A DNA stretch of 64,000 nt from Candidatus Omnitrophota bacterium (GTDB lineage: Bacteria > Omnitrophota > Gorgyraeia > Zapsychrales > JBAZNR01). A program made the position numbers and the translations under genes. The stretch lies in contig JBAZNR010000001.1 of the NCBI GenBank assembly GCA_041649175.1, positions 514,332-578,331 of the forward strand, in the 5' to 3' direction. The notes beneath the pieces were generated by a model that saw nothing but the letters and a program-made list of their open reading frames with translations, was not told the origin of the DNA and made no database searches. This document shows, one piece after another, positions 12,761-44,766 of this stretch (position 1 is its first letter; every line of letters starts with the position of its first letter).

Positions 12761-12908
12761 GCCAAAGTTCTCTCTCAATATTCTTAAGAAATACGAAAAT
12801 TCTCTTGTTTCGCCTCTGAGACGACACTAAAATGATTTTATAGAATAGAAAAGCAGCGTTTTTATCTGAAAAATATTTTAGGATATTAAAACATAATTGC
12901 CCGCGGCT

Positions 12909-14387
12909 ATGACAAGAACCTTAAAGATCTTTCTTCTTTTTATTTTTGCATCATCCGGTTTCTGTCCCTTACTGTATGCTCAAGGGCAAGACAGCCTTTA
13001 TCTTCGCGCGCCTAAGATCAGCCAAGAAACAAAAACCGTAAAACAAAATTCCATCCAGAAAACTGATTCCGCCAATCCGCTTCAACCCGTTGAAACAAAA
13101 GAATATTATGATTCCGGAGAATTAAAAGCGAGTTATCTGTATCAAAACGGCAAGAAAAACGGCCCGGCCAAAACGTATTTTAAAAACGGCACTGTTAATG
13201 ATGAAGTCATTTATAAAAATGATAAACTCAACGGCAGTGCCCGCAAGTATTATGAAAACGGTATTCTTCATCAAGAGGCGTTTTTTAAAAATGGGGTCCT
13301 GGAAGGAAAAGGAAAGATTTATGACAGCAAAGGCCAATTAGCGGAAGAATATGTTTATAAAAAAGGAAAGCCAATTATTCCTCGAGGGAAACAAGAAGTT
13401 AAAAAAAGTGAGCCGCCAAAAGTAGTCGAAAAGAAAGAGCAGGAAAGATCCGATATGGATTCGGGCCTTTCCCCTGAAGAAGAAACAGCGCTTGTCTTAC
13501 GCGCTCCTCGGTCCGGAACGCAAAGTGAGCCGGAATTCTTTTATTTGCGTTCACCGGGATGGGCGGGAGCCCCGGGGTCAGAAAGCAAAAAAGAAGAAGA
13601 AACGGTGAAGAAAGAAGAAGCTTCGCCGTGGGAATTTGAAGCCGGATATGAAACCTCGCAAATCGTTTATAAAGAACCAACCGTTATGCGCCAATCCGGC
13701 TATATGCAGGGAGTATTTTTTTCTGTGACGCATCGCCCCAAATATCTTCAGATCAAAAGCTTGACGTATGAACCGTGGCTTAATATGTTCCGCTATGATT
13801 TTCGTTACGCGTTCGGCGAAATGTATTACAAGGGCCGGCTTTCCAACGGAACGCCTTATAATGTCGACGATATTCCGGATTATATGATAGAAACACGTCT
13901 GGTGGCTGGACATGAATTTGAGGAATTTGACCCAGCTAAATTAGCTTTATACTTTGGCTTGGGATATCGCTATCTTAATGATGATATGTCGATCGATCCT
14001 GCCGGCTATGAGCGTGAGTCGAATTATGTTTATATCCCGGTTGGTGTAGAGTATATGAAGCCTACAAAAGACGATTGGTGGTACGGAGGAATGTTGGAAT
14101 TTGACGGCCTTGTCGGCGGATGGCAGATCAGCCATGTCAGCAATGTGAACCCCGGTTACGGTGACTTAACAAATAATCAAACAAAGGGGTTTGGGGGAAA
14201 ATTTTCTCTTCGTCTGCAAAAAAAGGCTCAAGACCTGGATTTTCTTCTAGAACCTTATTATCGATATTGGTATATGGCTGATTCTGAATTAACACCCTGG
14301 CTTTTAAACGGCGTTTCGATCGGTTCCGGCCTGGAGCCTCGCAATCATTCCAATGAATACGGCGTAAGGTTCATTGCCCGCTTTTAA
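12909..14387 (+). CDS. Secreted MORN-repeat protein with a C-terminal beta-barrel-like domain
   Basis: Signal peptide (MTRTLKIFLLFIFASSGFCPLLYAQG). Three or four MORN/YwqK-type repeats (YYDSGELKASYLYQNGKKNG..., YFKNGTVNDEVIYKNDKLNG..., YYENGILHQEAFFKNGVLEG...). A Lys/Glu-rich linker, then a C-terminal region rich in aromatic-alternating strands ending ...RFIARF. Confidence 0.6.
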   Translation: MTRTLKIFLLFIFASSGFCPLLYAQGQDSLYLRAPKISQETKTVKQNSIQKTDSANPLQPVETKEYYDSGELKASYLYQNGKKNGPAKTYFKNGTVNDEVIYKNDKLNGSARKYYENGILHQEAFFKNGVLEGKGKIYDSKGQLAEEYVYKKGKPIIPRGKQEVKKSEPPKVVEKKEQERSDMDSGLSPEEETALVLRAPRSGTQSEPEFFYLRSPGWAGAPGSESKKEEETVKKEEASPWEFEAGYETSQIVYKEPTVMRQSGYMQGVFFSVTHRPKYLQIKSLTYEPWLNMFRYDFRYAFGEMYYKGRLSNGTPYNVDDIPDYMIETRLVAGHEFEEFDPAKLALYFGLGYRYLNDDMSIDPAGYERESNYVYIPVGVEYMKPTKDDWWYGGMLEFDGLVGGWQISHVSNVNPGYGDLTNNQTKGFGGKFSLRLQKKAQDLDFLLEPYYRYWYMADSELTPWLLNGVSIGSGLEPRNHSNEYGVRFIARF

Positions 14388-15004: not shown

Positions 15005-15047
15005 AGGGGCGGTTTTTCCTATAGGAAAAACCGCCCCTCCGTTTTTC
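15005..15047 (+). terminator. Rho-independent terminator
   Basis: aggggcggtttttcc-tata-ggaaaaaccgcccct followed by ccgttttt. Confidence 0.8.
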
Positions 15048-15269
15048 CGCTCATTTTTTCTTAAGAAAACTTTTTAAAAGACTTTAAGATCTTTAAATTC
15101 TAGCCCCCGCTTTGCGTTTTCTCCCATCGGCAAAAAAAACTTGACATTCTAATAAGGTGTGGTATTTTTGTAAAGCTTTAGTCTAGAAAACCGCTTTCTT
15201 TATAATGTCAAATTACCTAACCCATTCTAAATCTAGTACTTTTAACCCTCAAAAAAACATGGAGGATGC

Positions 15270-18200
15270 ATGCTTAGTTATATAGAACGCAGAAAAGACA
15301 ATATGTCTTTTAGGCTTATTTCTTTCTTTGTCTTGATCACTTTTGTCGCCAGCCTTGTTACTCCGCCCATGGGCTACGCACAAAGTTTTAATATCAACTT
15401 ACCCGTTCCGGGAACCATGCTTCTTCCCAGTCCTGTCTTTACGCCGCCTTTACTTCGTGGCATTGAAATTGACCCTGAAAATCCGCTTCATTTTGGTTTT
15501 ATTATGCACGGCGGCGACCAAAAGGTTAAAGGCGAAGAGCTGAAAAAAGAAGCTATGCAATCCATCAAGTACTTTTTAGCCGCCCTCACCATTCCAGAAA
15601 AAGACCTCTGGGTCAACCTTTCTCCATACGAAAAAGGGCGCATTGTTCCCGAAAAATTAGGTTTAACCGACTTAGGCCGCGACCTTTTAGGCCAAGATTA
15701 TCTTTTAAAACAACTGGCCGCGTCTCTTATATATCCCGAAAACGATCTAGGCAAGAAATTCTGGGATAAAGTCTACAAAAAAGCTTTCGATCTGTATGGC
15801 ACAACAGAAATCCCCATCAATACTTTCAACAAAGTCTGGATCGTTCCTGAGAAGGCAACTGTTCTTGAAACCAACGGCATGGCCATTGTCGCCGACAGCC
15901 ATTTAAAGGTTTTGTTGGAAGAAGATTATCTGGCGGTTAAAAACAATCTTTCCAACACCGAAAAAGGTACGGATATTTTAGAAGCCGCCAAAGTGAAAGA
16001 ATTAAGCCGCGTAACCTCACCGGTTGTGCGCGAAGTCATCATTCCGGCTATTGAAGAAGAAGTCAATGAAGGAAAAAACTTTGCTTTGTTGCGCCAAATC
16101 ACCAATGCCGTTATTTTGGCCACTTGGTACAAAAAAGCTTTAAAAGAAAGTTTATTAGGCAAAATCTATGTGGATAAAAGCAAGGTTTTAGGAATTAACC
16201 TTGAAGATACATCCGCTAAAGAAAAGATTTACGAGCAATATTTAGCCGCCTTCAAGCAAGGCGTCTACAACTATATTAAAGAAGACTATGACCCCAATAC
16301 TCAAGAAACCATTGAACGCAAATATATTTCCGGTGGGTACGGGACGGAATTAAATGGTATTCCTCTCTCTCAAAGGGTTGAGATTGCCGAAACAGTCTCC
16401 CAACTGCCCGCTGATGCCAGAAACGATGTGGCAAAACTTGTTTCCGAGCCAACCACTGTTACAAATTTTGATACTAATTTAACCGAACCTAATGAACCTC
16501 CTTCTCCTCTATCCAACAAAAAAGATGCAGGTATGGTCAGAAGCCTTTTGTCTGCCGTTACAGATTTTATGAATCAAAAAAGATTTGAACGTATTCGCCG
16601 TACTTGGTCAGCAAAAGATATTGCGGATCTATTGGGACGAGAAGTAGCTGTCGCAGAACCAAAATTTTCTAATTATTTAGCGGATAAGTTATTTGCAGCA
16701 ATGAAAATAGCCCAAGATAATAAATCGTTTATCGCGACCGGTGGTGTTATGGATGGCCCATCGGCAGCGGCGATGGCGGAAGCCGGACATACGGCGCTTT
16801 ATTTCAGCGGCTGGCAAGCTTCCAATCATTGGGGAGGGCCGGATTTAGCCAAGTACCCTTATGACGTTATTGCCAAGAATATAAAAGAAATCTATAAGTT
16901 CTTAGTAAATAAGGATCAAGATCAGCAAATTCGTATGCGTGCGATGTCAAATAAATTAGAAACACTTATGTCGAGGGTGTTCACAACTATACACGAAAAA
17001 GACAGTCTTGAAATAGAACAACAGAAAGATAAGTGGGTTGAAGAATTTATTAGTATTATTAAAAGCGATGACGCGATCTTTATCAACGATCTTCGCTATA
17101 ATCCTAAACTTATTTCTGAGTACGCGGAAGCTCTTATTACTGATGCGATCGCTCAAAAAGGAAAATTAGATCAAAAGATGAGGGATGGTATCCGCGATGG
17201 TATGTTTGGTTTCTTAAGCACGCACCTGGTAGATTATCTTATCCCTATTTTTGCCGATGGTGATACCGGACATCAAGCCGTTAAAGAAATGGTCAAGCTT
17301 TATGTTGAGGCTGGTGCTGCGGCTATTCACTTAGAAGATCAGGCGCATGGCTTAAAGAAATGTGGGCACATGGCAGGAAAAGTTTTGGTATCAACCCGTG
17401 AGCATCTCATGAGATTGCTTAATGCCAGGCAACAGGCCGATGAATTGTTCTCTAGAATTATGATCATTGCCCGTACCGACGCCGAAGCTGCCAATCTTTT
17501 AGCAACCAACGAAGACCCCGTTGACCATTATTTTATTACCGGAACGACCAACCAAAATCTTCCTTCTTTGTCCTATGTGATCCGCCTAGCTCGTCGAGAA
17601 GTGGCCGAATTTGATAAGAGAGCAAAAAATGATGATCTTATCGCTGAAATCCGAAAACTTATTCCCGGGATCAAGGACGGAGAATTGGAAGACATCCTTT
17701 CGCCTAAAACTCCGGAGCAATTGGTAGATGAATTATCTCAGAAATCTCCGGATATTGCTGCTGCCATACAAAAGGTATGGGCTTTACGCGGAGAAGTTAA
17801 CGGCCAACGATTAGAGCCAAACGATGAATTGTTTACCGAGCACGATAATTTTCCGATGACAGCTGGCTGGCTTTGGGATAATGCGGAATCGATTAGATTT
17901 AATGAAAACGATCTTATTAAGCTCAGCACAATTCTTAAGGCTCAAGACGGAAGCACAATGACCGTTGAAGAAGTTTTAAATCGTAAGCCCGCTAAAATTG
18001 CCGATGAAGTCAAAGCCATGGAAGCCTTAACCGAAACATGGGGCCAAAAAGCCGGCTTAAAGACGTATGGTGAAGCAGTCGTTGAATCTTTAAGTCAAAG
18101 TACGATTGAGAACAAGGAACAACTTATTGCGCAATGGAAAGAAGCAACAGATCCTCTTAAAAATACCCTTTCCCATGATCAATTAAAAGCTTTGGCTAAG

Positions 18201-21200
18201 AAATTCGGCGTTGAAATTAATTGGGATGCCGAAAAAGCCAGAACCTACGAAGGCTATTATCAATTGAACAAAAAATTGGGGGCAACGTTTGCCGCGGTCA
18301 GACAAAGGATCTTTGCTACCATTGCCGATAGTAGCTGGATGGAACAGGAAAAACCCGACGTCAAACAAGCAAAAATTTTTGTAGATAATGTTAATGCCGA
18401 TCCGAAGGCAAAAGGCGTTCTTTTTTCCATTAATCTTTCACCTTCTTTTAATTGGCTTAATCCGGATAACTGGAAATCGTCATTAACCGCGCAACAAATC
18501 GCCAATGTCAAAAAAGCCATGCAGTTTGGTAATTTTGATTGGAGCAATTGGGAGACATGGCGTGAATATCGTCCGGATGTTATGGCTATGCTTGACGCCA
18601 TTATGGAATTTAGCAGTGAAATGGGCAAGGCAGGTTTTAGTTTCCAATTTGTGACGATCTTTCAAGATCATATCAGCACACTGGCGATGTTTCAGGCTGG
18701 AAAAAGGCTTAAAGAATCCGGTGCCGGCGGTTTTGTTATGGTCGGGCAAGCTGAAGAGCAAAAACACCGTTCTCGTTTCTTAGAACATCAAGCGGCGGCC
18801 GGTGTCAAACGCGTTGGCGCTCAGGATAATTTAGTCGCGCGCGGTTCATCGGCAACGGGTGCGACCGGTAAGGGCGATACCATGGCGCAGTTTCAACCAG
18901 CTACTCCAAAAGCCGACAAAGGCCATGTGGTGACATTAACACCTCCGGAACAAGACAGATTGAACAAGCTTTCGGTTACATTTCCGGTTGACTTAGTCAA
19001 TAAAACAGCCGCGCAATTGACGGCTTTAGGATTACGCGGTGCCTTAAAGCGTGTTAATGATATTTTAAAGAAAGAAGGCGTTGACGCCGAACAAAAGCTT
19101 CTATCGCTTAATCTTCTTTTTTCTGATCTTTATCAAAGAACAGGTAAGGAAGAAATTGAAGCGGTTGTAGCGATGTTAGCCCAAAGACAAATTTCACCAA
19201 ACGCGTCAGAAATTCTCACCAAAGAAGAATTATCCAAGATCAGCCGCGCTATTAAAGATACCGCCGATGCCATGGCTAAACGCATCTTCCAGAAAATTTC
19301 GGAAGACGAAGGCATTATTTTAATGGTACGGGTGAGTGAAGGTTTTGGGCGCGATGAAGTCGCGGAAAGTTTTAAATCCAATGAAGTTATTGTGCCTTTG
19401 AATCTTAAAGGAGAGATCAATCGTATCTATGATGCGGTTGTGACTGGAAGCGATGTTTATCGCTCTGAAACCGACCAAAAAGTATATCCGATCGTTAATG
19501 CTGTTATCGATGTGATCGAAGGAACAAATATGTTCGTGACTAATTCTAACGATCATACGACATCCAGCATCAAGGATTCCGAATCGGGTTCTACCAGCGT
19601 GATCGTGACCGGGCCAGGCGTTGCCAGTTTAGGCAATGCGCCCGACGGTTACGTGGGACAATTTGAAACCAATTTGGGCGACAAGGCCGATGAATTCAAA
19701 CAAATTAAAGTCAGTGTCAAGGGCCAAGACTACGCGCTTTATGATCCCGAGCTTTATGCGGTGGCTCCGGAAATGGTCATTGAATACTTGAAATTTCTAG
19801 CTCGCAGCCGCAATCAATTGTTAAGCGATTTACAAGAAGAAATTGTGGTCATGGATCGTGTCCGCGAAGAAAAACTATTGCAGGCCTTGAAAAGCGCCAA
19901 AGAAACGTTCAATATTCAAGGTTTGAAAGTTACTACCATCAAGGATGGAACGGTGGCTCACGGCCTTAAGGCTTCTATGACGCCGGAAATGTTTAAACAA
20001 GCGACAGGGCAAGAGTATGGTGTTCATAAAACCATGATCACCATTGGCGGTTCGGCGGAAGGGTTTATGAATTTAGCCATCGCCGGTGGATTAAAGGCAA
20101 GCGGTGCTGTCGGAGCTTTACGCATTTATAGCGGTAAGATGAATAAAGACGACGATGGAGTGGAAGTTGATGACCACTCACTGCGTTATAGTTTTTGGTC
20201 TGATGAGATTGAAGATATTGTCATGTTGCGCGATGATGCTCAAGATGTTTTGGGTGGAGAGAAATTATTTACTCAAGCGGATGTTCAAGGTAGCGTGATG
20301 GGAGCTTTTTCGTTTATCAGCACCAACGGTGTTTTTGGCATAGAAGGCGCTACGTCTTCGGAAGAAGGAACAAGCGTCAAAACACTTATTATCAATGCGC
20401 TTGGGTCAACCCCGACTATTTCTATTACACAAACTGAAGTCACTCCCGCCGACCTCGCGATCTTCAGCGATAAAAAAGACGCGGGGCATGTGGTGATGCT
20501 GGAAACCGGAGACAAAACAGCCTTGGTTAGCCGTATTGATCCGGAATTAGGCAATGTTTTTGAAGCGTATGGAGACATTTTAACGCCGCAAGTGGTTCAG
20601 GTTTTAGAAAAAATTGCTCCACTAAGCGAAGAATTATCTGTTTTACGAGAGATCCGTGAAACACGTTATGTGGATCGCCAAATTAATCGTAAGAAAATCG
20701 ATTTCTTATCCGAAACAAATTCCGATGGATCAGATGCCGTTATTCCGGGAACAAATATTACGGTTAAAGATGCCAGAGCGGGAAAATTTGAAGGCGCTCC
20801 TATTCCGGCTGACCTACAGCGTCAATGGATCCAGCTAACCGGCCCCGCCGCTAAATCTCCGCAGGACAAGATCGGATTTTCAAAAGAACAATGGACTGAG
20901 GCTGATTTGCGCAATGTTGCCCATGCTCTTTTAAGCGGAGCGGACGGCATGATGTTCGACGGCGAAGATGCCTTAGGGCAATTGGGCACGATGTCTTTGG
21001 ACAATATTCGCGCTTTAACTTTGGCTTACAAGAAAGACCCGGTTTTCCTAAAAATAGCCGAAGAGGTTGCTAATGAATATATCAAAGCCGGAAAAAGGGA
21101 TGCGAGTTGGAATTGGAGAGAACTGATCGATAATAATTTCACAACCCGCATTTATCGTGTTCGCGGATTGCATTTAGATGACCGGCATACGCAGTTTAAG

Positions 21201-40012: not shown

Positions 40013-40231
40013 ATGACAACGGATACCATTAATCAATATTTCTCAACGGTGCAAAGCGGACAGATCTACCGTTGCGTTATCGAAACGACCGAAAAAATGC
40101 TGATCGAAAAAGCGTTGGCACAATCATCCGGTAATCAACTGATCGCGGCCAGGATCTTGGGGCTCAACCGTAATACATTACGTACCAAAATAAAAAAGCT
40201 TAAAATTGATTTTCGGGGATTCAAACTATGA
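40013..40231 (+). CDS. Stand-alone Fis-family (NtrC C-terminal-like) HTH DNA-binding protein, 72 aa
   Basis: ...IEKALAQSSGNQLIAARILGLNRNTLRTKIKKLKI matches the Fis/NtrC HTH_8 motif. The stop overlaps the gltB start (ATGA). Confidence 0.6.
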   Translation: MTTDTINQYFSTVQSGQIYRCVIETTEKMLIEKALAQSSGNQLIAARILGLNRNTLRTKIKKLKIDFRGFKL

Positions 40232-43200
40232 AAGCACAAGGCCTTTACGATCCTTTTTTTGAACACGACAGCTGCGGGGTAGGGTTTGTCGTGAATATGA
40301 AAGGAAAAAAATCTCATAAGATCATCCAAGATGCTCTTCAGATATTGGAGAATTTAGGGCATCGCGGAGCTTGCGGCTGTGATCCTAAAACCGGGGACGG
40401 GGCGGGTATCAACATTCAAATTTCCGACGCTTTCTTTCGAAAAGAATGTTCCAAAAATCACATCACCCTTCCTAAAGAAGGCGATTATGCCGTCGGGATG
40501 CATTTTATGCCCACCAATTCTACCGAACGGGATACCATCGAAAAATGGATGGGCAACATTATCCGCGATGAAGGGCAGAAATTTTTAGGCTGGAGAGGGG
40601 TTCCTCACGACGGTTCTGTTATTGGGGAAGTGGCGCGCTCAGGCAAACCGGAATTCAGACAGCTTTTTATCGGCCGCGGCGCGGATACGCCTGCCGAACG
40701 ATTTGATATTAAATTGCATGTTATCCGAAAAAGGCTTTATCAAAAGATCAGACAATCCGAGCTTGCCCAAAAAGGCTATTACTACCTTTGCAGTTTGTCG
40801 ACGAAAACCATCGTCTACAAAGGCCAGCTGATGGCAAATCAGTTAAAGCAATTTTTCCCTGACTTAAATGATCCCGCCATGGTCTCTGCGTTAGCCATGG
40901 TCCATTCGCGTTACAGCACTAATACGTTTCCGTCATGGGCCTTGGCTCATCCGTACCGTTTTATCTGTCACAACGGCGAAATTAATACATTGCGCGGTAA
41001 CATTAACTGGATGCATGCGCGTGAACATCAATTTTCTTCTAAGCTTTTAGGAAGTGACCTGCAGAAAATATTTCCGATCGTTATTCCTCTGCGTAGTGAT
41101 AGCGCCACGTTTGATAATGCGCTAGAAATGCTGGTCTTAGCCGGACGCTCTTTGCCGCATGCCGTTATGATGATGATCCCCGAGGCATGGAGCGGACATG
41201 AGTCTATGGATGAGGAAAAAAAAGCTTTTTATGAGTATCATTCCTGTTTGATGGAACCCTGGGACGGGCCGGCATCGATTGCTTTTACCGACGGGCGTTA
41301 CATCGGCGCTGTTTTGGATAGAAATGGGCTTCGTCCTTCCAGATATTTAGTCACCAAGGATGATGTTGTTATTATGGCTTCCGAAACGGGCGTGTTGCCT
41401 ATTGCTCCGGAAAATGTTTCCAGAAAAGGGCGTTTGCAACCGGGAAAAATGTTCCTTATTGATACTCAAGAAGGCCGCATCATTGACGATAAGGAACTCA
41501 AACATTTCTATGCTACCCGAAAACCTTACGGTCAATGGCTTAAAGAAAATTTAATTCATCTTAAAGAATTGCCGGAACCAAAAAAAGTTTTTGGCCTTGA
41601 TGAAAAAACGCTGGTGGAGCGCCAGAAGGTGTTCGGTTATACATTGGAAGATTTGAAAATGATCTTGCCTCCTATGGTGACCAACGGCGAAGAAGCGACG
41701 GGTTCTATGGGCGCGGATAATCCCTTGGCGGTTCTCTCAGACCGGTCTCAGCCTTTATTTAATTATTTTAAACAACTCTTTGCGCAGGTCACTAATCCGC
41801 CGATCGATGCTATCCGCGAAGAGATCGTCATGTCCGAAGATGTCTTTTTGGGCGCCGAAGGAAATCTTCTGGAAGAAACTTCCGAACATTGCCGACGGCT
41901 TAAATTATCACATCCGGTCGTGACCAATAGAGAGTTGGAAAAAATCCGTCAGGTCCACAAGCCCGGGCTTAAAGCGACGACATTGCCGATCCTTTTTAAA
42001 TCTGGTGATGGGACCGGCGGCCTTGAAAAATCCTTAAGCGAACTTTTTTCTGCTGCTGATGCGGCCATCAAAAAAGGTTTTACGATCCTTATCTTGTCCG
42101 ATCGTGGTGTTAATCGTGACAATGTTCCCATACCGTCTTTGCTGGCGTGCTCTGGGCTTCATCATCACTTAGTCCGTCAAGGAACGCGCACCAAGGTTAG
42201 CTTGGTTCTGGAAACCGGTGAGGCGCACGAGATGCACCATTTTGCGGTTTTGATCGGCTACGGCGCTAATGCCATCAATCCTTATCTTGTTTTAGAAACG
42301 ATCGCAAGCGAGATTAAAAAAGGTGTTTTACCATCTGATCTATCTTATGACCGGGCCGCCAAGAATTTTATTAAAAGTACGCGTAAAGGATTGTTCAAGA
42401 TCATTTCCAAGATGGGTATTTCTACCATTCAATCTTATTGCGGGGCGCAGATCTTTGAGGCGGTGGGTTTAGGGCAGGAATTGATCGATAAATATTTTAC
42501 CGCCACACCTTCACGGATCGGCGGCATTGACATCAAGATCATCGCCGAAGAAATGTTGCGCCGCCACGCCCAAGCCTATCCGGCTTTAGGCGATATGGAA
42601 AAGATCCTTGATCCCGGCGGAGATTATCAGTGGCGTCAAGACGGTGAATATCATCAATATAATCCGGAAACAATTCCTTTATTGCAATTTGCGGTTCGAA
42701 GCGGCCGGTATGAAACTTATAAACAATATGCCAAGATCATCAATGACCGAAATAAGAATTTAGCCAATATTCGCGGGCTTTTGAAATTTAAAAAAGGAAA
42801 CCCTATTCCCTTATCGGAAGTGGAACCGGCTTCTGAAATTGTAAAACGTTTTGCGACAGGTGCTATGTCGTATGGTTCTATTTCTAAAGAAACGCATGAG
42901 ACGCTGGCCATTGCCATGAACCGTTTAGGCGGATTTTCCAATACGGGAGAAGGCGGCGAAGATGCCGAACGTTTTAAACCCGATGCCAACGGAGATTTGC
43001 GCCGAAGCCGCATTAAACAAGTTGCGCAAGGCCGGTTCGGCGTTACCATTGAATATTTAGTGAACGGCGATCAGTTGCAGATCAAAATGGCGCAAGGCGC
43101 TAAACCCGGTGAGGGCGGACAACTTCCTGGACATAAAGTGAGCGAAGAGATCGCCCGCACCCGCTACACAATGCCCGGCGTGCAGCTCATTTCTCCGCCG

Positions 43201-44766
43201 CCGCATCATGATATTTATTCTATTGAAGATTTGGCGCAACTGATCCATGATCTGAAAAATGCAAACTCAAAAGCTGATATTAGCGTCAAGCTTGTCTCTG
43301 AAGTTGGCGTGGGAACAGTGGCGGCCGGTGTGGCCAAGGGTAAATCCGACCATGTTCTTATCAGTGGTTATGAGGGCGGAACGGGAGCGAGCCCGCAGAC
43401 GTCTATTAAACATGCCGGGCTTCCTATGGAATTAGGCATTGCCGAAACCCAGCAAGTTTTAGTCATGAATGATCTGCGCGGGCGTATCCGCGTTCAGACC
43501 GACGGCCAGCTTAAAACCGGCCGTGATGTGGCGGTGGTTGCTATGTTGGGTGCTGATGAATTTGGTTTTTCAACATTGGCACTCATTTCTTTAGGGTGCG
43601 TTATGCTTCGCAAATGCCATTTGAATACATGTTCCGTCGGTATCGCGACTCAAGATCCGGAACTTCGAAAGAATTTTACCGGAAAGCCTGAATACGTGAC
43701 CAATCTCTTTACCTTCATTGCCGAAGAATGCCGTGAGATCATGGCTGAGCTCGGGTTTAGAAAGTTCGATGATATGGTTGGGTGCGTGGACATGTTGGAA
43801 ACTAAAGAAGCCATCGATCATTGGAAAGCCAAAGGCCTCGATCTAACCTATGTGCTGCACAAGCCCGATGTGCCGGCGCATGTGGCGATTCGTCATACCA
43901 GCCGGCAAGATCATGATTTAGCGGGTGCTTTAGACCATGAGCTTATTAAACTTTGCAAAGACGCTATCGAACATAAAAAAGCGGTGAAATTAGAAATACC
44001 GATCAAAAATGTCAATCGTACCGTCGGGACGATGCTGTCCAGTGAAATCGCGCGGCGTTATAATCTGGCAGGGCTTGCGGATGATACGATCAAAATTAAA
44101 TTTACCGGTTCCGCCGGACAAAGTTTCGGCGCCTTTTTGGCTCATGGCGTTACGCTGACTTTGGAAGGTGACTCCAATGATTATATCGGAAAGGGTTTAT
44201 CCGGTGGAAAGATCATTGTTTATCCGTCCAAATCCGCCACGTTTATTCCGGAAGAAAATATTTTAGTCGGCAATGTGGTTTTGTATGGCGCGGTGATGGG
44301 TGAGGCTTATTTTCGCGGGCTGGCCGGAGAACGGTTTGCGGTTCGAAACAGCGGTGCGTGGGCTGTGGTGGAAGGCATGGGCGATCATGGATGTGAATAT
44401 ATGACCGGCGGACGTGTGGTGGTTTTAGGCCCGACGGGGCGAAATTTTGCCGCCGGGATGAGCGGAGGCATCGCCTATGTTTGGGATAAAGATAAAACGT
44501 TTAGGAATCGTTGTAATTTAAACATGGTGGAGCTTTTTCCGGTCCAGATAGAATCCGATATTGCTGAATTAAAGACATTGATAGAAAATCATGCGCGTTA
44601 TACGCAAAGCTCGGTTGCTGAATTTGTTTTAAAGAATTGGAATGCAGTTTTGCCGCAATTCGTCAAAGTGTATCCGAACGATTACCGTCGTGTTTTAGAA
44701 GAAGCCGCTAAAGTTTTGGAAGTCAAAGAGGAAGATTTGGAAAAAGAAGTAATGTCGGATATGTAA
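40228..44766 (+). CDS. gltB: Glutamate synthase large subunit
   Basis: Ntn amidotransferase N-terminus (Cys after Met: ...FEHDSCGVGFV), FMN-binding domain and C-terminal GXGXG domain. 1512 aa. Confidence 0.95.
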   Translation: MKAQGLYDPFFEHDSCGVGFVVNMKGKKSHKIIQDALQILENLGHRGACGCDPKTGDGAGINIQISDAFFRKECSKNHITLPKEGDYAVGMHFMPTNSTERDTIEKWMGNIIRDEGQKFLGWRGVPHDGSVIGEVARSGKPEFRQLFIGRGADTPAERFDIKLHVIRKRLYQKIRQSELAQKGYYYLCSLSTKTIVYKGQLMANQLKQFFPDLNDPAMVSALAMVHSRYSTNTFPSWALAHPYRFICHNGEINTLRGNINWMHAREHQFSSKLLGSDLQKIFPIVIPLRSDSATFDNALEMLVLAGRSLPHAVMMMIPEAWSGHESMDEEKKAFYEYHSCLMEPWDGPASIAFTDGRYIGAVLDRNGLRPSRYLVTKDDVVIMASETGVLPIAPENVSRKGRLQPGKMFLIDTQEGRIIDDKELKHFYATRKPYGQWLKENLIHLKELPEPKKVFGLDEKTLVERQKVFGYTLEDLKMILPPMVTNGEEATGSMGADNPLAVLSDRSQPLFNYFKQLFAQVTNPPIDAIREEIVMSEDVFLGAEGNLLEETSEHCRRLKLSHPVVTNRELEKIRQVHKPGLKATTLPILFKSGDGTGGLEKSLSELFSAADAAIKKGFTILILSDRGVNRDNVPIPSLLACSGLHHHLVRQGTRTKVSLVLETGEAHEMHHFAVLIGYGANAINPYLVLETIASEIKKGVLPSDLSYDRAAKNFIKSTRKGLFKIISKMGISTIQSYCGAQIFEAVGLGQELIDKYFTATPSRIGGIDIKIIAEEMLRRHAQAYPALGDMEKILDPGGDYQWRQDGEYHQYNPETIPLLQFAVRSGRYETYKQYAKIINDRNKNLANIRGLLKFKKGNPIPLSEVEPASEIVKRFATGAMSYGSISKETHETLAIAMNRLGGFSNTGEGGEDAERFKPDANGDLRRSRIKQVAQGRFGVTIEYLVNGDQLQIKMAQGAKPGEGGQLPGHKVSEEIARTRYTMPGVQLISPPPHHDIYSIEDLAQLIHDLKNANSKADISVKLVSEVGVGTVAAGVAKGKSDHVLISGYEGGTGASPQTSIKHAGLPMELGIAETQQVLVMNDLRGRIRVQTDGQLKTGRDVAVVAMLGADEFGFSTLALISLGCVMLRKCHLNTCSVGIATQDPELRKNFTGKPEYVTNLFTFIAEECREIMAELGFRKFDDMVGCVDMLETKEAIDHWKAKGLDLTYVLHKPDVPAHVAIRHTSRQDHDLAGALDHELIKLCKDAIEHKKAVKLEIPIKNVNRTVGTMLSSEIARRYNLAGLADDTIKIKFTGSAGQSFGAFLAHGVTLTLEGDSNDYIGKGLSGGKIIVYPSKSATFIPEENILVGNVVLYGAVMGEAYFRGLAGERFAVRNSGAWAVVEGMGDHGCEYMTGGRVVVLGPTGRNFAAGMSGGIAYVWDKDKTFRNRCNLNMVELFPVQIESDIAELKTLIENHARYTQSSVAEFVLKNWNAVLPQFVKVYPNDYRRVLEEAAKVLEVKEEDLEKEVMSDM

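Follow-up and report, generated by a model that had tools for sequence, protein, structure and literature searches.

The 64,000-nucleotide stretch analysed here (called the window; contig JBAZNR010000001.1 of assembly GCA_041649175.1, positions 514,332 to 578,331) comes from a Candidatus Omnitrophota bacterium, a member of a phylum of widespread, uncultured nanobacteria. At 15270..24122 of its forward (+) strand it carries an open reading frame (ORF) that is uninterrupted over 8.85 kb and encodes a giant protein of 2,950 amino acids (aa) plus the stop codon. The order along the ORF is a predicted signal peptide, a conserved N-terminal module (N-module), a linker, isocitrate lyase (ICL), an unassigned domain, malate synthase, phosphoserine aminotransferase (SerC), a conserved C-terminal module (C-module) and an acidic tail. 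We find that ends of this kind frame diverse enzymes in a large protein family, and that the mature chains of this family have lost nearly all of their cysteine. Defined by a bracket in which a signal peptide plus N-module and a C-module plus tail enclose variable cargo, the family appears to be an undescribed, phylum-wide protein architecture, and the window protein shows the bracket at both ends. The mature protein is probably extracytoplasmic. Positions below are numbered within the window, and the parts and expression signals of the giant gene all lie on the + strand.

Results

The Signal Peptide

The signal peptide is predicted to cover aa 1–37 (15270..15380), with an n-region of aa 1–13 that carries RRK, an h-region of aa 14–32, and a c-region that reads PMGYA. 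The assignment rests on the classical rules (n, h and c regions and the residues at −3 and −1) together with conservation in the family. Residues 12–30 are the sole strongly hydrophobic 19-residue stretch of the whole protein, with a Kyte–Doolittle mean of 2.12; the stretch is preceded by RRK and followed by PPMGYA and then QS, with the predicted signal peptidase I cut falling between A37 and Q38. Across 59 aligned family members this site lies in a conserved cassette, PP-x-[VSAG]-[YF]-A before the cut and Q after it. Of the 59 sequences, 47 have Pro at position −6, 51 have a small residue (V, S, A, G or T) at −3, 53 have Ala at −1 and 52 have Gln at +1; the window protein has G at −3 and A at −1. 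The signal peptides that could be parsed (18 sequences) have a median length of 37 aa, and the net charge of the n-region is at least +1 in all of them. These features support the assignment of the N-terminus as a predicted Sec signal peptide of the signal peptidase I type.

No start codon lies between the upstream stop and the ATG at 15270, a ribosome-binding site (GGAGGA, 15261..15266) precedes it by 3 nt, and homologues keep the n-region at the protein level as M-x-S-Y-I-E-R/K-R..L-x-Y-R. Therefore, the start is M1 and not M12. An earlier interpretation of this DNA made from its letters alone (the sequence-only reading) had placed the signal peptide at residues 12–38; the hydrophobic stretch is indeed located there, and the extent is corrected here to aa 1–37, beginning at M1. 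The same reading had considered that the upstream Met might go unused, or that the segment might be a hydrophobic helix of a cytoplasmic protein. Our data point away from both, since M1 is used as judged by its ribosome-binding site, its position as the first start, and the conservation of the n-region, and the segment is no internal helix of a soluble enzyme.

Two other kinds of signal were considered and rejected. A Tat signal would carry a conserved twin-arginine motif (S/T-R-R-x-F-L-K) immediately ahead of the h-region; here the RR pair at aa 7–8 lies six residues ahead of the h-region, and homologues carry KR, RK, KH or QR at that place. A lipoprotein signal (signal peptidase II) fails on the lack of a lipobox, on the Gln that 52 of 59 sequences have at +1, and on the absence of any Cys from the signal peptide of the window protein.

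Cysteine Depletion of the Mature Chain

The window protein has 1 Cys in 2,950 aa (0.03%), as compared with 191 Cys in 16,502 aa (1.16%) for the other 42 window ORFs; the binomial probability of ≤1 Cys in 2,950 residues is P = 4e-14. The only cysteine of the protein, Cys698 (codon at 17361..17363), lies within a KKCGH motif, which we take to be the isocitrate lyase active-site signature. The depletion is a property of the family. In 92 complete members, Cys makes up 0.094% of the whole chain, 0.043% of the cargo and 0.02% of the N-modules, versus 0.957% in 252 neighbouring ORFs of related loci (family versus neighbours, Mann–Whitney P = 3e-31). The signal peptides of the 92 members hold 68 of their 144 Cys, or ∼1.8% by an estimate that allows ∼40 residues per signal peptide. 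The cargo is free of Cys in 68 of the 92 members, and in the rest it holds a single Cys or, in several members, pairs that are 1–5 residues apart.

Selection strips cysteine from the mature chain only, and spares the Cys of the active-site motif and closely spaced pairs. The pattern fits chains that leave the cytoplasm and are kept unfolded across the outer membrane. Autotransporters can pass disulfides across the outer membrane only where the bonded Cys lie close together (PMC3546941). Together with the conserved cut-site cassette, the loss of cysteine from the mature chain lends support to the earlier proposal that a Sec-type signal or N-in anchor puts these enzymes outside the cytoplasm. 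As a control, the Cys count of solved SerC homologues was uninformative, SerC being naturally low in Cys.

The N-Module

The N-module comprises ∼315 residues (aa 42–356; 15393..16337) with the motifs NLPxPGTM, WVNLSPYE, QDYLLKQ, TFNKVWIVP and a terminal RKY(F/I)SGG, in this order, and in the window protein it is 45–60% identical to that of aligned members. A non-conserved linker of ∼90 aa follows (aa 357–444; 16338..16601). The sequence-only reading had described an unassigned domain of about 400 residues here; the lack of a match is confirmed, and the size is reduced to the ∼315 conserved residues, the variable linker accounting for the remainder.

The N-module matches no Pfam family at E ≤ 10, and a profile search against PDB sequences (E ≤ 10) gives no match above chance. 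The search of aa 1–445 against NCBIfam returned one match only, at chance level (E 0.14), and PHROGs gave chance-level matches only (E about 0.015). An AF2 (AlphaFold2) model of the 445-aa N-part, built with 59 sequences, is mixed alpha/beta with a predicted template-modelling score of 0.71, and many of its 10-residue blocks have a mean predicted local distance difference test score (pLDDT) of 86–95. Foldseek comparison of N-module models with PDB and BFVD gave no match at E ≤ 0.001; the best E values are 0.04–0.5, with template-modelling (TM) scores of 0.1–0.26. The remote-homology and Foldseek check that had been suggested for the unassigned domain thus yields no significant relative, and the module is best described as a predicted alpha/beta fold without a known relative. 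Neither the motif strings nor a description of the two modules was found in the literature searched.

Among the best Foldseek PDB matches for two different family members, NheA, MakA/B/E, AhlB, SmhA/B and ClyA recur with noise-level scores. A relation to the ClyA family of alpha pore-forming toxins (a helical bundle with a beta-tongue) was rejected as noise, with E of 0.27–4, probability ≤0.06 and TM ≤0.14.

The C-Module and the Tail

The C-module spans ∼56 residues (aa 2856–2911; 23835..24002) with the pattern GGI[DN]L..LQIKRDG..GF.PVIINI.P..LP.LLG, and is followed by an acidic low-complexity tail that ends the protein (aa 2912–2950; 24003..24119). The strict pattern locates it 20–100 aa before the end of the protein in 92 of 250 family members, and is matched in 26 of the 55 family ORFs that end inside their own locus. 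Inspection of the remaining 29 shows mostly a variant C-module, the exceptions being mostly fragments or ORFs with masked stretches. The C-module therefore appears to mark the C-terminal end of almost every complete member of the family. When a 5.8-billion-protein index was queried with the C-module, almost only short contig-end fragments were returned. Five ORFs of 73–115 aa (P0125, P0307, P0308, P0330 and P0338), located on contigs of 40–132 kb, consist of little beyond a C-module; these could be gene ends split off by frameshifts or free-standing C-modules.

Across the family, tails have a median of 28 aa; their net charge is negative in 78% of members and positive in 10%. The last 8 residues of complete members follow a loose E-(E/Q)-L-S-x-L-N pattern (e.g., ..VSSLN, ..LSSI), which could be a terminal recognition tag. 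In the tails of seven members (P0153, P0154, P0160, P0184, P0193, P0246 and P0257) a single C-x6-16-C pair is present, which suggests a small disulfide loop formed in an oxidising location. Signals of the exosortase or sortase type (PEP-CTERM, LPXTG, GlyGly-CTERM), in which a transmembrane helix and a basic tail would follow a short motif, were ruled out, given that the hydrophobic stretch of the C-module is proline-rich (Kyte–Doolittle 1.48), the tails are acidic, and NCBIfam gives no match.

Three observations connect the two modules. How far the N-modules diverge correlates weakly with the divergence of the C-modules (Mantel r = 0.18, p = 0.005). A confident model of the first C-module hairpin (mean pLDDT of 10-residue blocks up to 93) was obtained only within a full-length member. 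The N-module closes with an invariant Y-x-S-G-G, and the C-module opens with the invariant G-I of its GGI motif; a non-conserved linker adjoins each boundary. On these grounds the N- and C-modules may work together, possibly as one domain that is split by the cargo.

Size and Distribution of the Family

A word-indexed search with the N-module scored 8,000 candidates and found 1,362 proteins at E ≤ 1e-3, the top matches being 50–60% identical; nearly all named sources are Candidatus Omnitrophica/Omnitrophota. A profile search that covered 1.84 billion cluster representatives exhaustively gave 8,391 proteins; for 6,761 of these, E ≤ 1e-30. The module is shared in this way by thousands of proteins that are themselves uncharacterised. 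Of the matches, 150 were listed; their module begins no further in than residue ∼65, 146 of them show a single matched stretch, and their lengths run from 420 to 5,312 aa. GTDB species genomes contribute at least 600 N-module matches.

The 78 related loci that were kept derive from metagenome-assembled genomes (MAGs) of Omnitrophota, from MAGs labelled "uncultured Planctomycetales", or from one unlabelled MAG. At least five of the 78 loci come from a single MAG, and several MAGs (e.g., DATDQB01, JBFMEN01, JAJDCA01) give 3–5 loci among the top 80. Family genes form same-strand tandem pairs in about a dozen loci (L007, L009, L013, L015, L018, L034, L039, L052, L060, L062, L067 and L078). In the window itself, BLASTP against all six-frame ORFs found no paralogue of the N- or C-part.

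The Cargo

Pfam and NCBIfam leave three parts of the window protein without assignment, aa 1–444, aa 1216–1736 and the last 112 aa. The assigned cargo begins with a long-form isocitrate lyase (∼aa 445–1205; 16602..18884; PF00463, E 9e-91; TIGR01346, 314.8 bits, above the cut-off). Malate synthase of the A type (aa 1737–2420; 20478..22529; PF01274, E 7e-48) and SerC (aa 2449–2838; 22614..23783; NF003764, 353.7 bits versus a cut-off of 253) lie further downstream. The Cys of KKCGH and the conserved AGAQKN motif of SerC are retained, and the cargo looks intact from its sequence. Searches of Pfam, PDB and PHROGs gave no match for the ∼520-aa middle domain between the lyase and the synthase (aa 1216–1736; 18915..20477). 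A homologue occurs in an ORF of locus L009, with 38.7% identity over 908 aa that include the end of ICL; this ORF lies upstream of, and separate from, the N-module genes of that locus, and is cut at the locus start, so that its N-terminus is outside view.

The cargo of 30 complete members picked at random includes GGDEF, HEAT repeats, UDP-glucose pyrophosphorylase, phosphoglycerate kinase, pyruvate phosphate dikinase and hexokinase, as well as SNF2/DEAD helicase, ABC1 kinase, ROK, phosphoglucomutase, metallophosphatase and M48 peptidase. Other family matches carry NUDIX, HAD, PGI or kinase domains. The export of enzymes that depend on coenzyme A (CoA) and pyridoxal phosphate (PLP) had been called paradoxical for the window protein. 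This paradox stands, and because the family cargo consists of cytoplasmic-type enzymes that need nucleotides or CoA, it holds for the whole family.

A junction motif, K-(K/A)-D-(A/K)-G-(H/M)-V, is present three times in the window protein, each time just before a cargo unit. The copy ahead of ICL reads K-K-D-A-G-M-V and lies in the linker (aa 416–422; 16515–16535); the others precede the middle domain (aa 1213–1219; 18906–18926) and malate synthase (aa 1734–1740; 20469–20489). As a family-wide processing site, K-x-D-x-G-H-V was rejected, since it is not enriched, with 2 matches versus 2.1 expected.

Expression Signals and Genomic Neighbourhood

A hairpin that resembles an intrinsic terminator (15005..15038; 15 pairs, 9 of them G-C, then a T-run) closes the upstream gene, and the giant gene is therefore its own transcription unit. 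A candidate sigma-70-like promoter at 15141..15168, ∼100 nt 5′ of the start codon, consists of TTGACA, a 16 nt spacer and TATTTT, with TG before the second hexamer; the assignment is a consensus match only.

The product of the upstream gene (12897–14387), 496 aa long, carries MORN repeats behind a signal peptide and ends in Phe, similar to outer-membrane proteins. Its sole Cys lies in its signal peptide, echoing the giant protein. On the downstream side, the giant gene is flanked by a gene for a peptidoglycan-binding lipoprotein, followed by sucC, sucD, a gene resembling the Pta N-terminus (AAA_26 plus DRTGG) and a thiolase gene (24911–29949). These last genes form a central-carbon cluster beside the ICL–malate synthase fusion. 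Between sucD and the Pta-N-like gene, at 27009–27542, lies a hydrophobic ORF of 177 aa with 4.5% Cys (8 Cys) and no Pfam match. The other long ORF of the window, at 40228–44766, is an ordinary glutamate synthase large subunit.

The envelope-type genes that the sequence-only reading had pointed to on either side, the MORN protein and the peptidoglycan-binding lipoprotein, are real. They do not recur in the 78 related loci, and as evidence for export their presence is coincidental. The recurrent neighbours in these loci are housekeeping genes and a response-regulator–EAL protein (REC-EAL, a cyclic di-GMP phosphodiesterase), the only recurrent neighbour besides housekeeping genes, which 11 of the 78 loci carry no more than 6 kb from a family gene (e.g., L030:1630-2811).

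Discussion

Proposed Export and Its Alternatives

We lean, if only slightly, toward the explanation that the giant protein is exported by Sec and that its N- and C-modules form a bracket for export or sorting, the role of the modules included. The conserved, family-specific signal peptide would target the chain to Sec, and cleavage after Ala37 (G-Y-A) would leave an N-terminal Gln. The unfolded, essentially cysteine-free chain would cross the envelope. The two modules would be the constant ends of an Omnitrophota-specific bracket around interchangeable enzyme cargo, would act after Sec translocation, and would serve as an export, sorting or anchoring device for machinery encoded elsewhere in the genome. 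Alternatively, they could be a single carrier domain that is split by insertion of cargo between the YFSGG and GGI boundaries, with the cargo held in a loop. In either case, active isocitrate lyase, malate synthase and SerC would be found beyond the cytoplasmic membrane, whether in the periplasm, at the cell surface, or in contact with or inside a host or prey cell. The enzymes would act where their substrates exist outside the cytoplasm, and because Omnitrophota are regarded as predators or parasites (PMC10066038; PMC12583861), the most economical site would be the contact zone with, or the interior of, the host or prey.

Several observations weigh against this explanation. The chemistry of the cargo needs acetyl-CoA (malate synthase), PLP (SerC), and ATP or GTP (other members), and the classical periplasm or the medium is not expected to supply acetyl-CoA, PLP, ATP or GTP. 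The sucC, sucD, Pta-N-like and thiolase genes downstream are cytoplasmic-type and metabolically related to the cargo. ORF clustering within ±6 kb across the 78 loci reveals no transporter or sorting enzyme that recurs beside family genes. Both modules are without a recognisable fold or family, and their role is read from the architecture alone. Finally, the uncharged run formed by the h- and c-regions has a median of 22 residues in the 18 parsed sequences, which is enough for a membrane anchor that is not cleaved.

The length of this run, together with the single helix that AF2 predicts for aa 12–30, is what an uncleaved signal anchor would look like, with the enzymes held at the periplasmic side by an N-in helix and the N-module serving as a membrane-proximal stalk. 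According to a recent preprint, predictions place a membrane anchor on most long Omnitrophota proteins (10.64898/2026.06.07.730766), and the loss of Cys suits a periplasmic location equally well. However, the cut-site cassette, with its PP helix breaker, small residue at −3, Ala at −1 and Gln at +1, is very strongly conserved and would be needless for an anchor. The signal region, moreover, tolerates cysteine and the mature chain does not, as expected of a part that is discarded, and the cofactor paradox stays. We consider the anchor unlikely. A tether of the opposite orientation, with the helix on the inner membrane face, the enzymes of a metabolon in the cytoplasm and the N-module as a scaffold, would give the cargo its cytoplasmic cofactors and would suit the nearby sucCD and thiolase genes. 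But in all scorable sequences the positive charge flanks the helix on its N-side, which predicts N-in, C-out; the conserved signal-peptidase site would be without a role; and the 10- to 20-fold loss of Cys that starts right after the signal peptide would be left without explanation. Such a cytoplasmic tether seems to us very improbable.

The modules might also be removable pro-domains, acting as intramolecular chaperones or targeting pieces that are cut off at the Gly-Gly boundaries (after ..YFSGG and before GGI..) to free the enzymes at their destination. The invariant Y-x-S-G-G and G-I each adjoin a non-conserved linker, the window protein repeats its junction motif three times, and a preprint reports C39 and S8 peptidase domains near the N-termini of giant Omnitrophota proteins, together with a proposal that they cut these into pieces (10.1101/2023.11.21.568195). 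Yet Gly-Gly is common at domain edges, no protease was linked to the family in this analysis, and the junction motif is not enriched. Removal of the modules, which we regard as quite unlikely, is compatible with bracketed export and not opposed to it. A final alternative takes the unusual size of the protein and its unusual mix of domains as signs that the ORF is chimeric or mis-assembled, or that the gene is decaying into a pseudogene. Other assemblies, some on contigs of >1 Mb, call an identical 2,950-aa protein, and the giant ORF is therefore no assembly artefact. The long uninterrupted frame, the thousands of homologues with the same end modules, and the catalytic motifs that are kept leave this alternative with a negligible chance.

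Returning to Sec export with a bracket of modules, a further-reaching version can be put forward tentatively, although we would not expect it to hold in full. Omnitrophota may possess a dedicated, phylum-wide route that exports housekeeping-type enzymes dependent on ATP, CoA or PLP, and these would work where cytoplasmic metabolites are available outside the predator, inside the host or prey or at its breached surface. The cargo of such a route would comprise the glyoxylate-shunt enzymes, phosphoglycerate kinase, hexokinase, pyruvate phosphate dikinase, helicases and cyclic di-GMP enzymes, each framed by both modules. The N- and C-modules might even join head to tail into an enzyme-carrying coat. 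If this version is true, part of the predator's metabolism would be run externally, on the cytosol of its prey.

Relation to Known Secretion Systems

The arrangement resembles several known systems in part. Like the TpsA proteins of two-partner secretion (TPS), the family has a Sec signal and a conserved N-terminal domain (∼250–300 aa in TpsA) heading very long, variable proteins; both have Cys-poor exported chains, and in TPS the partner transporter need not be unique to one substrate. However, the window protein has no Pfam match (E ≤ 10) to the TPS/haemagglutination-activity domain, and the model is mixed alpha/beta and not a beta-helix. Within ±6 kb in the 78 loci, no TpsB-like (Omp85-type) gene recurs. 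The present family also has an obligatory C-terminal module, and its cargo is of cytoplasmic enzyme type rather than adhesins or toxins. Cargo of the type IX secretion system (T9SS), which is known from the Bacteroidota group, likewise combines a Sec signal at one end with a conserved C-terminal module at the other, and comprises many large, diverse proteins per genome with the machinery encoded elsewhere. Here the NCBIfam sorting-domain models gave no match, a scan of the last 140 aa picking up nothing but the end of SerC; the C-module measures just ∼56 aa and is followed by an acidic tail, and T9SS cargo is without a shared N-terminal domain.

The passengers of autotransporters (type Va) share with the family an almost Cys-free chain in which the remaining Cys tend to form closely spaced pairs, the rule for unfolded crossing of the outer membrane. 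The present family, in contrast, is without a C-terminal 12-stranded beta-barrel (no Pfam or NCBIfam match), and its N-module has no counterpart in autotransporters. Proteins associated with S-layers through S-layer homology (SLH) or CWB2 domains also come as large sets of paralogues in each genome, in which the end modules stay constant and the functional domains vary, but their modules are unrelated in sequence, Omnitrophota are diderms, and the cargo here is central-metabolic. By analogy, then, the arrangement would work like a TPS domain plus a C-terminal sorting domain with the cysteine rule of autotransporters. It fails the sequence and fold tests for TPS, T9SS and autotransporters, and is therefore a member of none.

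A further likeness is to the giant proteins of the same phylum ("archaeovorins" and other long proteins), which, according to two preprints, also have signal peptides or transmembrane helices and the same unexpected cargo of HEAT, PPDK_N, NUDIX, GGDEF, HAD, hexokinase, PGM and ROK (10.1101/2023.11.21.568195; 10.64898/2026.06.07.730766). Unlike these, the proteins of the present family are smaller (0.4–5.3 kaa among those listed) and mostly have one N-terminal hydrophobic segment. Both preprints note the occurrence of signal peptides or transmembrane helices with metabolic Pfam domains and debate the topology. Term searches of the two texts returned no mention of a shared N-module, a C-module, cysteine or disulfides.

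Implications

The two end modules provide a sequence-searchable handle on >8,000 proteins. The signature of cysteine loss argues for extracytoplasmic cargo independently of topology predictors. Metabolic reconstructions from MAGs are affected as well, in that the isocitrate lyase, malate synthase, phosphoglycerate kinase and hexokinase that are counted as central metabolism may sit outside the cytoplasm.

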